Source: Candidatus Spongiisociaceae bacterium (GTDB lineage: Bacteria; Actinomycetota; Acidimicrobiia; Spongiisociales; Spongiisociaceae). From it: 64,000 bases of DNA. Position 1 is the first letter of the stretch. Each line of letters opens with the position of its first letter. The notes below the pieces were generated by a model. The model worked only from the letters and a program-made list of their open reading frames with translations, ran no database searches and was not told where the DNA came from. Below are positions 59,765-64,000 of this stretch, in pieces. Location of the stretch: the NCBI GenBank assembly GCA_965219685.1, contig CBDCOH010000002.1:2880001-2944000 (forward strand). Reading direction: 5' to 3'. Both the position numbers and the translations under genes were made by a program.

Positions 59765-59822
59765 GGGTTGCAGAGTAACCCACTCGAGAGGACCCGAATC
59801 CGCGTGAATGGTGAATGGTGAA

Positions 59823-59886
59823 TGAACCGCCCCGGGTTTGCCTGAGTCTCCGGGGAACTCGGGGCGGTTCATTTCGGGGCGGTTCA
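59823..59886. mobile_element. IS3-family (IS51/IS6110-like) terminal inverted repeat footprint with no internal sequence
   Basis: TGAACCGCCCCGGGTTTGCC joined to GAGTCTCCGGGGAACTCGGGGCGGTTCA (59823-59871), then a 15-nt duplication of the right tip. Confidence 0.72.
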
Positions 59887-59890
59887 TTTG

Positions 59891-59945
59891 TTGGTAGTTG
59901 CTAGTTGGTAGTTGGTAGTTGGTAGCAACTACCAACAAGTAACTA
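59891..59945. repeat. heptamer array (TTGGTAG)-type x5 followed by inverted CAACTAC-type units
   Basis: read directly; a short TGGTGAA array at 59804-59822 lies on the other side of the IS footprint. Confidence 0.9.
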
Positions 59946-60308
59946 TTCCGCCGGGGGCATCTCGCTGTCCACGATGCCTACCACCGCGCCGGCCGGGTCC
60001 GAGAACACCGCAAAGGTCACCGCACCGGGAACGCTCGTGACCGGCATGACGACGCCGGCACCGGCGGCCACGGCCCGGTCCAGATAGCCCTGGATGCCCT
60101 CGACCTCGATGTAGATCATCACCTGAGGCTCCCCGGTAGGCGAGGCTTCGATACCGCCGTTGATCCCCGCCTCGGTACCGGTGTTCACGAGCCCGTAACC
60201 CATCTCTGGTACCACATCGACCTGCCATCCGAACACTTCCCTAAAGAAGTCCCGGCTCTTCTCCGGCTCCGCGGTTTGGATCTCGAAATGAACTACGGGA
60301 TTGGGCAT
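59943..60308 (-). CDS. VOC family (glyoxalase/bleomycin resistance) protein
   Basis: PVVHFEI, F...FGW, GINGG, FAVF.DP.G. Confidence 0.9.
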   Translation of the reverse strand: MPNPVVHFEIQTAEPEKSRDFFREVFGWQVDVVPEMGYGLVNTGTEAGINGGIEASPTGEPQVMIYIEVEGIQGYLDRAVAAGAGVVMPVTSVPGAVTFAVFSDPAGAVVGIVDSEMPPAE

Positions 60309-60435
60309 GGCATCCTCCTGCGATCGCTGCGACCGGCCGCTCGTCCTGACCACGAGGCTTCACCGCCGTATCCCGCGGGAACGTGGCCTGAAATCCACGG
60401 TAGCGCAGCGAGCGACCTACCGATCGCAGACGGAG

Positions 60436-60561
60436 AGGCACCTGGAGCCTCACCACCGCAACCTGGTGAGCCATTCCATGTCACTACCGGCCTGGCTACA
60501 GGAAGCAGCCGTCGAGTCTGTGATTCAAAGATTCGAGATGTGTTACGACGACCTCTGGAAG
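60436..60561 (+). pseudogene. fragment of an HI0074-like nucleotidyltransferase substrate-binding (HEPN-fold) gene
   Basis: QEAAVESVIQRFEMCYDDLWK resembles the IQRFE..Y...WK family motif; truncated at both ends. Confidence 0.6.
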
Positions 60562-60880
60562 GGTCCTCAGGCGGCATTTGATCTACGTACTTGCTCGTCC
60601 TCGTAAGCGATGTCCAACATGGCGCAGACTGCTAGGTGAAGGCCGATCGGTTCGGACTTGAGGTCGTTTACTCGATCCAGCGGCCCTCCTCGCCGCGCCC
60701 GAACTCCCCCCCCCCCGGACCTCCGGGCTGAACCGGTAGAGGAGGTGAAAGACGCGTGGCGAATCTTCCGAGTGGTTCCACAAGGTCACGGTAAATCCTC
60801 GATTGTCATGCCTTTAATTACATACTGCCTGGTAGCATCTCCACCGAATTTACACGTTATCCCGAAAGGGGACGGATCCC

Positions 60881-61009
60881 ATGGTGCTCGTACGGCAAAC
60901 AACAGCTTTGACGCGACCGACGGCATCCGTCACCGCGATCGCCCGTCTCCGTCGCGCCACACTGGTGCACTTAGTCCCCCCCCCCCCCCCCCGACTCTCC
61001 CTGCCGTAA
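60881..61009 (+). CDS. candidate 42-aa leader ORF containing the C17 tract
   Basis: AAAGGGGA SD-like sequence 8 nt before the ATG; MVLVRQ...HLVPPPPPRLSLP*. Confidence 0.4.
   Translation: MVLVRQTTALTRPTASVTAIARLRRATLVHLVPPPPPRLSLP
60976..60992. repeat. poly-C tract (C17); a second tract (C11) lies at 60706-60716
   Basis: read directly. Confidence 0.9.
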
Positions 61010-61034
61010 ACCCAACTCAGCGGAGCCTTGCGCC

Positions 61035-61052
61035 CACCTCCTGCGGGAGGTG
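61035..61052 (+). promoter_or_regulatory. hairpin sequestering the Shine-Dalgarno of the surface-protein gene
   Basis: CACCTCC-TGCG-GGAGGTG: 7-bp perfect stem, C(UNCG)G loop, 3' arm is the SD 5 nt before ATG 61058. Confidence 0.7.
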
Positions 61053-61057
61053 ACGGC

Positions 61058-64000
61058 ATGAGGCTCCCCGCTTTCAACCCGCTTCCCTCGCGCCCGTGGT
61101 TCCCGTCTGGCCCGACCTCACGCCGGGGGCGCCGGTCCACCATTCCGGCGCTGTTGCTCATCCTTGCCGCCGTTTCCGTGCTGGTTCTCACCGATACCGG
61201 CCGGGCGGGCGCCCAGAGCGGCGAATTGGGCGTGTCCATCTCCGCCGATGCGGCATCCCTCGAGGCGGGCGACACCGTCACGCTGACGGCGGACATCTCC
61301 AACGCTCCGCAGAACGAAGACCCGGCATACGCCTGGGACATCTGCACGGATGCGGGGACCTGCATCTCCAATGGCCAGCACCCCCTAAAGTTCAACTGGA
61401 ACAAGGCTGGGATATGGACGTTCCAACTCACGGTCTCCTACGATTCCGGGGCATCGGCCAGGTCCAACCAGGTCAGCGTTGCGTGGAGCGATGCGGGCGA
61501 CGGAGCGGAACTCCCACCCGAACCGGACGCCGCCGGCGGCGCCAGCGGGGACGAGGGAGCCACCGGGGATCAGGCCGCCGACACGGCCGACGCGAACAGC
61601 CCGGGCAACGTCCGTCTCTATGCCCACAACAACAACGACGTCTGGGTGACATGGGACGCGCCCACCGTGGCCAGCGGCCGCACGCTCAGCGCCTACCGCG
61701 TCGAGTTGAGGGTCGAGGGAGCCACCCCGAGGACGCTCACCCCGAGGAACGTCAGCAGTGGCGCCAGCGAGTTCACTTCGCGCCGCTATCGCTTCAGCAG
61801 CTTGACCAACGGCACGAGCTACACCGTCCGGGTCGCCGCACGCACGCACCCGGACGACGATTCAACGATGACCGCCGACGCCTGGTCCGCTCGGACCGCG
61901 AGCGTCGCGGCCTGGTCCGAGCCGACCCAGCTCTGGTTTGTGAGCGACAGACCCAGTATCACGGCATTGGGCCGCGTTCACATGGAGGTCCTCTCCAACA
62001 AGGGGAAAGACTCAGTTGTCTGCCAGGCCGACGGACCCGACATGACGGCAGCTCAGCTCAATTGCCCGCCGGGAGTCCTTATCTCTATGGATACAACCGG
62101 AGCGGTGACGGCCAGCGCCACATCCCTCCACGGGGGAAGCACGTCACCATCGGAGGGCGCCAGGGGTGGCCCGCGCGGTTTCCTGACCTATGCGTCCGGC
62201 GGCGCAGGACGGATCGTCATTGCCTGGGTGAGCACGGCCAGCTCGACCACCGACTACATCGTGCAGTACCGCTCGGGCACGAGCGGGGCCTGGACCGACG
62301 TCGTCAAAGCCGCCACCGCCCGCTCCCACACCGTCACCGGACTAGCCGACGGGACGTACCAGATCCGCGCCCGCGGCCGCATAACCAGGCTCGAGGACGT
62401 GGACCACGACGATGACCCGGCTACGCCTAAAGTAGAAATGACGGTTCACTACCTGGGCTTCACCTCCGAGATCCACACCCTCACCGTGGCCGCGAGCAAC
62501 ACCGGCACGGTGAGGCCACGGGATGTCCAGCAGGCGCGGTCCGCGGACGGCCAGTCGCTGATCGTCCAGTGGGAGTTGCCCACCGCCACCGGCGGTTCGA
62601 AGCCGTATGCCTGGCAGGTGCGCCACCGGGCCCAGGGTACGAGCGCCTGGACGAGCAGCGCGGAACTCCATTACCGCCCCACCCAGCGCCTCTGCCACGA
62701 CCGCGACGGCACCGAGTGCCAGAACCCCAGGAGCTACACCATCAGCGGTCTCACCGCGGGCACGGATTACCAGGTGGATGTCCGCGCCCGCAACGCCAAC
62801 GGCTGGGGAGCCTACGCCATCAACGATGCGCCGACGGTGGCCAACATGATCCCGGACCGGACGGCGGAGGCGAGGACGGCGTTCAGCTTCCAGTTCGCGG
62901 CCAACACCTTCAGCGACGCCGACGGCGACACGCTGACCTACACGGCGACCCAGGACGACGGCTCCGCGCTGCCCTCGTGGCTGTCCTTTGACGCCTCCAC
63001 CCGAACCTTCTCCGGCACGCCGGGGGATCTGGACGCGGGCACGCTGTCGGTCAAGGTGACGGCCAGCGACGGCATCAACAGCGTGAGCGACACCTTCGAC
63101 ATCGTGGTCAGCACCGACCGATCCCCGCCGACGGTGGCCAACATGATCCCGGACCGGACGGCGGAGGCGAGGACGGCGTTCAGCTTCCAGTTCGCGGCCA
63201 ACACCTTCAGCGACGCCGACGGCGACACGCTGACCTACACGGCGACCCAGGACGACGGCTCCGCGCTGCCCTCGTGGCTGTCCTTCACGGCAGCCACGCG
63301 CACCTTCGCCGGCACCCCGGCGCGCTCGGACGTGGGCACGCTGTCGGTCAAGGTCACGGCCGGCGACGGCACCTGGACGGTGAGCGACACCTTCGACATC
63401 GTGGTCAGCCTGGATCCGCCGGCCTTCTGGCGGAGCATGGCGCGGGGCACGACGCTGTATGTCGACTTCGACCAGTCCCTGGACACGGCCTCGCGGCCGC
63501 CGTCCAGCGCCTTCCGGGTGACGGCGGGGCCGAAGGGCGGCGCGGCCCGCACCATCGCGGGCACGGCCACCGTGGTGAACATCAGCAACTTCAGCGGCGG
63601 CAGCCGCGTGGAGATCGAGCTCGCCCGGGCGGTGGCCGAGGGCGAGGTGGTGAGGGTGCGCTACGTCAGGCCCTCCGCCAACCCGCTGCAGAACAGCGCG
63701 GGCAAACAGGCGGCGAGCTTCTCCGGCCAGCCGGTCCTGAACGGGCCGCCCCGCATCCTTACGCAGGCCATTTCCTCGGACCCGGGCCCGGACAGGCTCT
63801 ACACCCTGGGCGACCAGGTGCAGGTGCAGGTGACCTTCGACGTCCCCGTGGTCGTGGACACCACCGGCGGCCGGCCCCGGCTGAGAATCAGCCTGGGCCT
63901 GTGGGACGGCGGATCGCAGGCCCCCGGCGAGGCCCGCGGCAACCGGTGGTCCCACTACCTGGAGGGCAGCGGGACGACGACCCTCACCTTCCAGTACACC
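61058..64000 (+). CDS. large secreted/surface protein with Fn3, two putative-Ig (cadherin-like) and SwmB-like domains; runs off the window, so absent from the ORF track
   Basis: signal peptide (IPALLLILAAVSVLVL..AGA-Q); Fn3 motifs (LTNGTSYTVRVAA, GLTAGTDYQVDVRARNANGWG); APTVAN.IPD..FSDADGDTLTY..LPSWLSF..FSGTP twice; segments translated by hand stay in one frame. Confidence 0.88.
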   Translation, partial: MRLPAFNPLPSRPWFPSGPTSRRGRRSTIPALLLILAAVSVLVLTDTGRAGAQSGELGVSISADAASLEAGDTVTLTADISNAPQNEDPAYAWDICTDAGTCISNGQHPLKFNWNKAGIWTFQLTVSYDSGASARSNQVSVAWSDAGDGAELPPEPDAAGGASGDEGATGDQAADTADANSPGNVRLYAHNNNDVWVTWDAPTVASGRTLSAYRVELRVEGATPRTLTPRNVSSGASEFTSRRYRFSSLTNGTSYTVRVAARTHPDDDSTMTADAWSARTASVAAWSEPTQLWFVSDRPSITALGRVHMEVLSNKGKDSVVCQADGPDMTAAQLNCPPGVLISMDTTGAVTASATSLHGGSTSPSEGARGGPRGFLTYASGGAGRIVIAWVSTASSTTDYIVQYRSGTSGAWTDVVKAATARSHTVTGLADGTYQIRARGRITRLEDVDHDDDPATPKVEMTVHYLGFTSEIHTLTVAASNTGTVRPRDVQQARSADGQSLIVQWELPTATGGSKPYAWQVRHRAQGTSAWTSSAELHYRPTQRLCHDRDGTECQNPRSYTISGLTAGTDYQVDVRARNANGWGAYAINDAPTVANMIPDRTAEARTAFSFQFAANTFSDADGDTLTYTATQDDGSALPSWLSFDASTRTFSGTPGDLDAGTLSVKVTASDGINSVSDTFDIVVSTDRSPPTVANMIPDRTAEARTAFSFQFAANTFSDADGDTLTYTATQDDGSALPSWLSFTAATRTFAGTPARSDVGTLSVKVTAGDGTWTVSDTFDIVVSLDPPAFWRSMARGTTLYVDFDQSLDTASRPPSSAFRVTAGPKGGAARTIAGTATVVNISNFSGGSRVEIELARAVAEGEVVRVRYVRPSANPLQNSAGKQAASFSGQPVLNGPPRILTQAISSDPGPDRLYTLGDQVQVQVTFDVPVVVDTTGGRPRLRISLGLWDGGSQAPGEARGNRWSHYLEGSGTTTLTFQYT
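62830..63410 (+). repeat. 297-nt tandem domain duplication (putative Ig domain)
   Basis: copies start at 62830 and 63127; the first ~160 nt are identical. Confidence 0.92.

Follow-up and report, generated by a model that had tools for sequence, protein, structure and literature searches.

We analysed a 64,000-nt stretch of DNA from a Candidatus Spongiisociaceae bacterium (the window; positions 2,880,001 to 2,944,000 of contig CBDCOH010000002.1, assembly GCA_965219685.1), which carries near its right end a compact cassette placed directly before a gene for a large surface protein. The cassette comprises a leader open reading frame (ORF) crossing a tract of 17 cytosines (C17), a linker with a stop codon in one frame, and a helix that contains the Shine-Dalgarno (SD) sequence and the start codon of the surface-protein gene (the main gene). 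This arrangement is probably a portable cassette that acts as a phase-variable translational switch. Its anatomy, its conservation, the frame-specific placement of its stops and the polymorphism of its tract length are directly observed. An earlier note made from the window alone had described the C17 tract, a leader ORF with its own SD, an SD hairpin, a start codon at 61058 and an ATGA stop/start overlap, and had proposed that the tract length sets ON and OFF states. All of these parts are present in the sequence. The observation is confirmed, and its interpretation as a switch is supported by the comparative evidence.

All features of the cassette lie on the plus strand. The leader ORF (60881-61009) begins at an ATG located 8 nt 3' of an SD-like AGGGGA (60867-60872). 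According to the ORF list and an in silico rebuild it has 42 codons at C17, of which 31 lie 5' of the tract, and the tract itself is read as proline. The C17 homopolymer (60976-60992) is the putative slippage-prone part of the switch: the genome (4.42 Mb, 65% G+C) has eight homopolymers of at least 9 bases, of which C17 is the longest, and the length distribution otherwise ends at 8. Downstream of the tract lies an early stop, TAA 61007-61009, in the frame of the main gene (-51), followed by a long predicted helix covering both the SD and the AUG (61022-61067). Its inner stem (61035-61052) pairs CACCTCC (61035-61041) with GGAGGTG (61046-61052) around a TGCG loop, UGCG in the RNA. The latter arm is the SD of the main gene, and its end forms part of a TGA at 61051-61053, so that SD and stop together occupy 61046-61053. 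The start codon lies in the ATGA at 61058-61061. The main gene runs from 61058 beyond the end of the window at 64000 and encodes a product of 1913 aa with the Pfam domains He_PIG, fn3, PKD and SWM_repeat and an N-terminus resembling a signal peptide.

To relate tract length to the end of the leader, we rebuilt the region in silico with tracts from C12 to C22 and read the leader stop for each. Tracts of C14, C17 and C20 lead to the TAA 61007-61009, tracts of C12, C15, C18 and C21 to the TGA 61051-61053 at the SD, and tracts of C13, C16, C19 and C22 to the TGA 61059-61061, which overlaps the main start codon as ATGA. The frame arithmetic given in the earlier note for C15 to C19 is thereby reproduced.

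The architecture recurs in the genomes of other uncultured marine bacteria. The exact 26-mer comprising the hairpin, the SD and the ATG was found in one metagenome contig and at six loci in five genome records, all titled as Dehalococcoidia metagenome-assembled genomes. All seven loci are laid out as in the window: an SD precedes the start codon of a short ORF, ...TA leads into a C tract, and after a ∼64-nt linker come the hairpin, ATGA and a signal peptide resembling MR.P...RRWPL..LAAL.L.LLA..AQ. R1, a covariance model constructed on these copies, added six more; its matches were six in G048, in clusters with a spacing of 3-4 kb, two in G046 and one in G134. A protein-led search of 401 genomes, with the first 200 aa of a single downstream protein as query, returned 30 loci. 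We inspected the six whose match starts in the first 16 residues, and each has the cassette, truncated by a contig end in one case; the remaining 24 are internal-repeat matches or known copies. In total, we count 20 cassettes, 19 of them complete, in 13 records, and each precedes a signal-peptide protein. Six of the nine downstream proteins scanned have fn3, He_PIG, SWM_repeat, Big_5 or Big_9 domains and one has ABM; for the other two, no domain match was obtained in the first 513 aa. The co-occurrence of leader ORF, SD hairpin and ATGA overlap with poly-C before other Fn3/Ig genes, which the earlier note had put forward as a check, is therefore seen in 20 cassettes from 13 records.

The cassette is rare among relatives of its carriers. 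R1 detected it in one of 29 genomes of the window's family, namely the window's own, and, around G048, in one of 21 genomes of G048's family and two of 151 of G048's order; because R1 searches score just some of the first-look candidates, weak copies may have escaped, and at E <= 1e-5 R1 missed L127, L128 and L129. BLAST of 60354-61100 against the window's own genome returned no second copy, only poly-C matches. Searching 40 relatives with the DNA of 60354-61300 gave matches to 60373-60445 and the C run only, and the first 400 aa of the main protein gave only weak, domain-level matches in the relatives. Because the distribution is so patchy, it suggests horizontal spread. Short contigs of runs X1-X3 (418-485 nt) match 60990-61057 with 8 differences and are preceded by unrelated AT-rich sequence and three C's; another organism or locus in the sample therefore has a related cassette that lacks a long tract there.

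The linker between tract and helix shows the frame logic. We counted stops in each frame from the tract end to position -8 in all 20 cassettes. The main-gene frame contains 29 stops, with at least one in every cassette, at -51, -48 or -33, and TAA, TGA and TAG are all used. The other two frames contain none in 369 and 359 codons, and in all 20 cassettes they end at the TGA at -7, within GGAGGTGA, or at an ATGA or GTGA overlap with the start codon. Thus one exit frame is closed shortly before the helix, and two remain open until a ribosome would be inside it. This is the pattern that the model of the earlier note requires; it is not what a neutral tract or promoter element would yield. In two of the three frames the upstream ORF ends within a few nucleotides of the downstream start, as in translational coupling. 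The same stops rule out a frameshift switch inside the coding sequence: no tract length can join the leader to the main protein, and a main-frame stop separates tract and start in 20 of 20 cassettes (TAA 61007 in the window), in agreement with the earlier claim that the tract cannot frameshift the surface protein. The tract does not behave as a promoter spacer either, as it starts 95 nt 3' of the leader start, inside the ORF, and no promoter-like site was found. An upstream Fn3 gene ends ∼45 nt ahead of the cassette in L104, L114 and L119, and a promoter-spacer role therefore cannot apply there.

Several features suggest that the leader is translated. An SD-like sequence, often GGGAGGTG, is located ahead of the tract, 5-8 nt 5' of an ATG, GTG or TTG, in all 19 complete cassettes, and in each of them the leader frame stays open as far as the tract; where the window has AGGGGA, the homologous cassettes have GGGAGGTG or GGGGAGG. 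The distance from leader start to tract is 29-53 codons in 13 of 14 cassettes and 17 codons in L121. Across these 14 cassettes the leader frame has no stops from start to tract, compared with 28 and 26 in the other frames, a count that is partly circular since starts were picked in open frames, although homology and the SD fix the start as well. The upstream alignment shows homology between the leader start of the window and those of other cassettes, and the remainder has diverged. Interior leader indels between close pairs measure 3, 3, 9 and 6 nt, and leader substitutions between close pairs show no enrichment at third codon positions. The G+C content at third codon positions is 0.65 in the leader of the window and 0.89 in the main gene, which indicates that translation matters rather than the peptide. 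The act of translation thus seems to be conserved, and not the leader peptide, for which Pfam gave no match.

The helix is unusually stable. The 50-nt region 61022-61071 folds at -34.4 kcal/mol, compared with -19.65 ± 2.88 kcal/mol for shuffled sequences (z = -5.12), and none of 200 shuffles was as stable. The 7-bp SD hairpin described in the earlier note is present, but it is the core of a longer helix of 16-19 bp that pairs the AUG as well, and its UNCG-type loop is not conserved: the loops among copies are UGCG, UUUG, UUCG or 6 nt long. The consensus structure of the first eight copies has 16 pairs (RNAalifold). In all 20 cassettes at least part of the SD arm is base-paired in the minimum free energy fold of -40 to +15, at -15 to -36 kcal/mol, so that the SD and AUG lie in stable structure, as is expected of a coupled downstream gene. 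The sequence of the helix varies little among copies. Two stem pairs of the divergent copy L129 have changed in a compensatory way, from C-G to G-C and from U-A to C-G, and the SD of this copy has changed to GGGGCTG. One-sided stem changes compatible with G-U pairing occur in L119, L118 and L123, and L122 and L126 have one stem mismatch each. A minimal 5-bp CCTCC/GGAGG hairpin beside a start-like codon is common in the window's genome (78 cases), and the significance of the structure therefore rests on the long helix and its conservation.

The length of the tract varies among copies. In the first 14 cassettes it is 7, 9, 11, 12, 12, 14, 16, 16, 16, 17, 17, 18, 21 and 21, and two further copies have C17 (L125) and C14 (L144). 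The orthologues L104 and L114 have leaders identical at 109 of 109 positions and 400 nt of upstream sequence that is 96.5% identical, and they differ in tract length, with C12 and C16, respectively. In run X2, from the window's own sample, a 767-nt contig spans 60305-61072 and reads C16 instead of C17; it would fall in the ATGA state, and the C17 of the window is the early-stop state. This variation within the sample is read from assembled contigs (Logan), and X1 and X3 have no contig across the tract. As in simple sequence repeat contingency loci, the tract stands above the genomic background and its length differs between close relatives. Among the 19 complete copies, six are in the early-stop state, six exit at -7 and seven at +1. 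The tracts of L127 (C4), L128 (C4) and L129 (C6-T-C8) have decayed, and all three are in read-through frames, which fits a gene kept expressed after losing its switch; as there are three cases, this is only suggestive.

Homopolymers are error-prone in sequencing, and poly-C runs at the contig ends of two other genomes look artefactual, so that the arrangement in the window might be thought an assembly artefact or a chance coincidence. The tract, however, lies in the middle of its contig, it is seen again in the separate X2 contig and as C7 beside an insertion sequence (IS) in run X5, and the architecture recurs in 20 cassettes. We consider this explanation effectively refuted.

The X5 contig shows an IS at this tract. 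This contig (2159 nt, from another study and labelled as coral metagenome) matches 60986-61664 with 8 differences, and 5' of 60986 it runs into the right end of an IS that is present in the window's genome, the junction being at 60986-60992. The element belongs to the IS110 family: its copy outside the window, at C2:3104720-3106207, has the family's defining domains DEDD_Tnp_IS110 (PF01548, 4.4e-36) and Transposase_20 (PF02371, 2.6e-24), with the gene split in two ORFs. Seven full copies and 19 right ends, taken from several genomes, have the termini TTTACCTTGTTG... and ...CTTGACAACAAGACAGGGACA flanked by C runs, of 3-7 C on the left and mostly 4-10 C on the right, and a TTGACA lies 14 nt before the C run at the right end. 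Because C runs flank the termini while the sequence beyond them is unrelated from copy to copy, the element appears to use C runs as insertion sites. Within the window's family, 16 of 24 other genomes contain it, and none of 16 genomes from the order's other families does. Another long tract, C16 at C2:2373596, forms the end of a copy with an internal deletion. We considered C17 itself as a scar or target of this element and dropped the idea, as the cassette occurs without the IS in other genomes. The literature covered on IS110 elements with homopolymer targets, subscription journals excepted, yielded no account of the cassette.

These data raise the possibility that the leader ORF is a constitutive coupler and that the C tract is merely a hypermutable landing site for the element, its length having no regulatory meaning. 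The C runs on both sides of the full copies, the right ends abutting unrelated flanks, the insertion exactly at the window's tract in strain X5, the C16 left by the truncated copy and the abundance of long C/G tracts in the window's family all agree with it. A constitutive coupler, on the other hand, gives no reason for linker stops to be confined to one frame (29 against 0 and 0) or for six of 19 copies to be in the early-stop frame, and the cassettes of other genomes have no adjoining IS sequence. We therefore regard this explanation as very unlikely.

The closest published system that we found is the pil1 locus of Streptococcus gallolyticus (Danne et al. 2014, PMC3894217), where GCAGA repeats in a leader peptide gene set the length of the leader. 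A short leader stops 39 bp short of a terminator hairpin, and expression is low; out-of-frame leaders end within or after the hairpin, so that the ribosome prevents termination and expression is high (PMC3894217). The earlier note had called the switch unlike the usual tracts within coding sequences or promoter spacers; this holds, as neither arrangement is found here, but pil1 means that it is not without precedent. The two systems share a repeat inside an open 5' leader ORF, one short frame ending before a hairpin (by 39 bp in pil1 and 12 nt in the window), frame-shifted leaders that end in or after it, and a product that forms a surface structure. They differ in that pil1 uses a pentamer and a premature transcription terminator, and the window a C homopolymer and an SD/AUG helix without a T run and with a stop/start overlap at its end; in addition, the cassette is present in multiple copies, set before individual genes inside arrays. 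A terminator scan of 60300-61300 found no terminator-like site, and the helix is followed by GGCTCCCCGC, without a T run. The cassette thus resembles the pil1 family in its working but is not a member of it, because its hairpin is no intrinsic terminator. Since the SD and AUG lie in this hairpin, which has a stop/start overlap at its end and no T run, control of translation initiation is indicated, and the cassette appears to be a translational variant of the same leader-length logic.

The same architecture could nevertheless act on transcription, if an early leader stop allowed Rho or an attenuator hairpin to end it. An untranslated main ORF is open to polarity, all of the comparative evidence fits this alternative equally well, and the published precedent works by attenuation (PMC3894217). 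Against it, the hairpin contains the SD and AUG with no T run after it, and the terminator scan was negative. A helix that hides the start suffices to block initiation, and polarity could add to this effect rather than replace it. We find a transcriptional output unlikely.

Other known systems share single elements with the cassette. Translational coupling through structures that hide a start site, and ATGA overlaps, are known from hok/mok and phage MS2. As in these, SD and AUG lie in a stable helix that would be opened by an upstream ORF ending at or beside the start; unlike in these fixed systems, a hypermutable tract would decide whether the ORF reaches the helix. The homopolymer switches of Bordetella fim, Neisseria opc/porA and pilC and the Campylobacter G tracts act as promoter spacers or within coding sequences. 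They likewise place a slippage-prone G/C homopolymer before or in surface-protein genes, but the tract of the window lies neither between -35 and -10 nor inside the regulated coding sequence. In Helicobacter pylori, a G repeat in the tlpB leader is targeted by the small RNA RepG (PMC8295292), and following this model the C tract could be a variable-length site for a trans-acting small RNA or a poly(C)-binding protein that grades translation. This system provides the precedent of a variable homopolymer in an mRNA leader acting post-transcriptionally through a small RNA (PMC8295292), and the tract is C on the sense strand in 20 of 20 cassettes. Regulation of tlpB is graded through small-RNA pairing, as described there, whereas in the window an ORF crosses the tract and the frame-specific stops point to a logic modulo 3. 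A binding site would leave the SD and open frame of the leader, these stops and the start/stop overlap unexplained, no G-rich partner RNA came to light, though no search was aimed at one, and we consider such a site highly improbable. The literature covered on phase variation with translational coupling, leader peptides or upstream ORFs and on phase variation in sponge symbionts and Chloroflexi, with subscription journals outside the coverage, contained no account of the cassette.

For the translational switch, we infer from the architecture a transcription from upstream, translation of the leader, certain rates of slippage and an ON or OFF output, which could be linked as follows. A transcript starting 5' of 60881 would carry the leader ORF, and its ribosomes would cross the C tract as poly-proline. 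The main gene could not start alone, with its SD and AUG locked in a helix of about -34 kcal/mol. The tract length modulo 3 would set the exit frame of the leader. In the C17 frame the leader would end at TAA 61007, 12 nt before the helix; the leading edge of a ribosome stopped at 61007-61009 lies ∼12-15 nt ahead, short of 61022, judging by ribosome footprints, so that the helix should stay closed and the gene OFF or low. In the other two frames ribosomes would move on into the helix, and the leader would end either at the ATGA overlap or at TGA 61051, which leaves 4 nt to the AUG. A ribosome at -7 or +1 would have unwound the whole 5' arm, and its release 4 nt before the AUG or on it is the classical geometry of re-initiation; the melted helix would permit re-initiation or fresh 30S binding, turning the gene ON. 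Replication slippage in the tract would move lineages between the states, and where the genes stand in tandem, each would carry a translational switch of its own within a common transcript. Poly-proline stalling may modulate the output.

A candidate promoter of the leader transcript, by reading of the sequence, is the extended -10-like TGGTAGCAT at 60830-60838 on the plus strand. In the upstream alignment of 11 cassettes it is aligned to TGGTAAAAT, TGGTATAGT, TGGTACAAT and TGGTATTGT, 3' of GTCAC-type repeats.

Several points weigh against the switch. A scan with a consensus promoter found no site at the locus. The cassettes are homologous, so that the counts overstate the independent support, which perhaps amounts to 5-7 independent lineages. 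Covariation in the helix is slight, with no compensatory pairs among the first eight copies in RNAalifold. In L127 and L128 a short window folds the same stem, and a longer one favours another pairing of the SD. The TGA at -7 is part of an extended SD and the A after the ATG is paired in the outer helix; because SD complementarity and helix pairing also explain both, these two conserved features are not independent evidence for leader stops. The early stop of three divergent copies is separated from the stem by only 9 nt, so that a terminating ribosome would have little room to leave the helix closed. Homopolymer lengths in assemblies are error-prone, which makes the state of any single copy uncertain, and tracts of 17-21 C may make RNA polymerase slip, blurring the states encoded in the DNA.

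The surroundings of the cassette contain other elements. A second tract, C11 (60706-60716), lies 270 nt 5' of C17 and is followed by CCTCC...GGAGGTGA and a mini-ORF starting with GTG. The 80 nt around it (60672-60752) match deeper-covered contigs in X1-X3 and X5 with 2-5 differences and unrelated continuations, and BLAST found no further copy in the window's genome; the C11 stretch may be a fragment of another repeated poly-C module. An element of ∼60 nt at ∼60383-60440 contains two small hairpins, GTGG..CCAC and GGTAG..CTACC, and shows conservation in six genomes of another genus of the family. It lies 5' of the divergently transcribed glyoxalase-family gene; it has no Rfam match and is not a tRNA. 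Rfam gave no match within 60200-61300, a tRNA scan none within 59800-61100, and Pfam none for the ORF 60301-60606.

Long homopolymers are also found elsewhere in the genome and its relatives. Among the relatives G001-G040, C/G runs of at least 14 bases are present in 20 of the 24 genomes that belong to the window's family, and only three of the 16 from other families have them; in two of these three (G035 and G039) the runs are at contig ends. In G010 (loci L049-L068) three tracts, read on the G strand, have TTGACA, 3 nt, G14-16 and TAAAGT, 5' of an SD and genes whose products start with MRR..., and a repeated element has two tracts ∼100 nt apart. The tracts of G010 look like promoter-spacer switches of a different type. 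In the window's own genome, a G15 tract (C2:2341496-2341510) lies 26 nt after tRNA-Arg(CCT), and a C16 tract (C2:3216008-3216023) appears to lie between convergent long ORFs, crossed by a 127-codon ORF in the mechanical ORF list. Neither of these two tracts matches the cassette model R1.

The data on the cassette and on the IS can be joined in a single reading, which we offer tentatively, at somewhat less than even confidence. The cassette, composed of promoter, leader ORF, poly-C tract, SD/AUG helix and signal peptide, would be a horizontally mobile plug-in unit for phase variation in uncultured marine host-associated bacteria. It would switch each of the eukaryote-like adhesin genes of an array at translation initiation, independently of operon transcription. 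An RNA-guided IS110-family element would have evolved to home to the same C tracts, coupling its own spread to contingency loci.

Phase variation is, to our knowledge, known almost only from cultured pathogens, and its usual classes are promoter-spacer tracts, tracts within coding sequences, inversion and methylation. If the translational switch is real, it would represent a purely translational class, in which a homopolymer sets the exit frame of a leader and this frame alone decides whether a locked start is opened. With a length of ∼180 nt, the cassette is compact and could serve synthetic biology as a stochastic switch. Control at the level of translation would allow genes within one operon to be switched independently. 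Fn3/Ig-like surface proteins are thought to mediate contact with the host, and uncultured bacteria of the symbiont type would be shown to bet-hedge in the display of such proteins.

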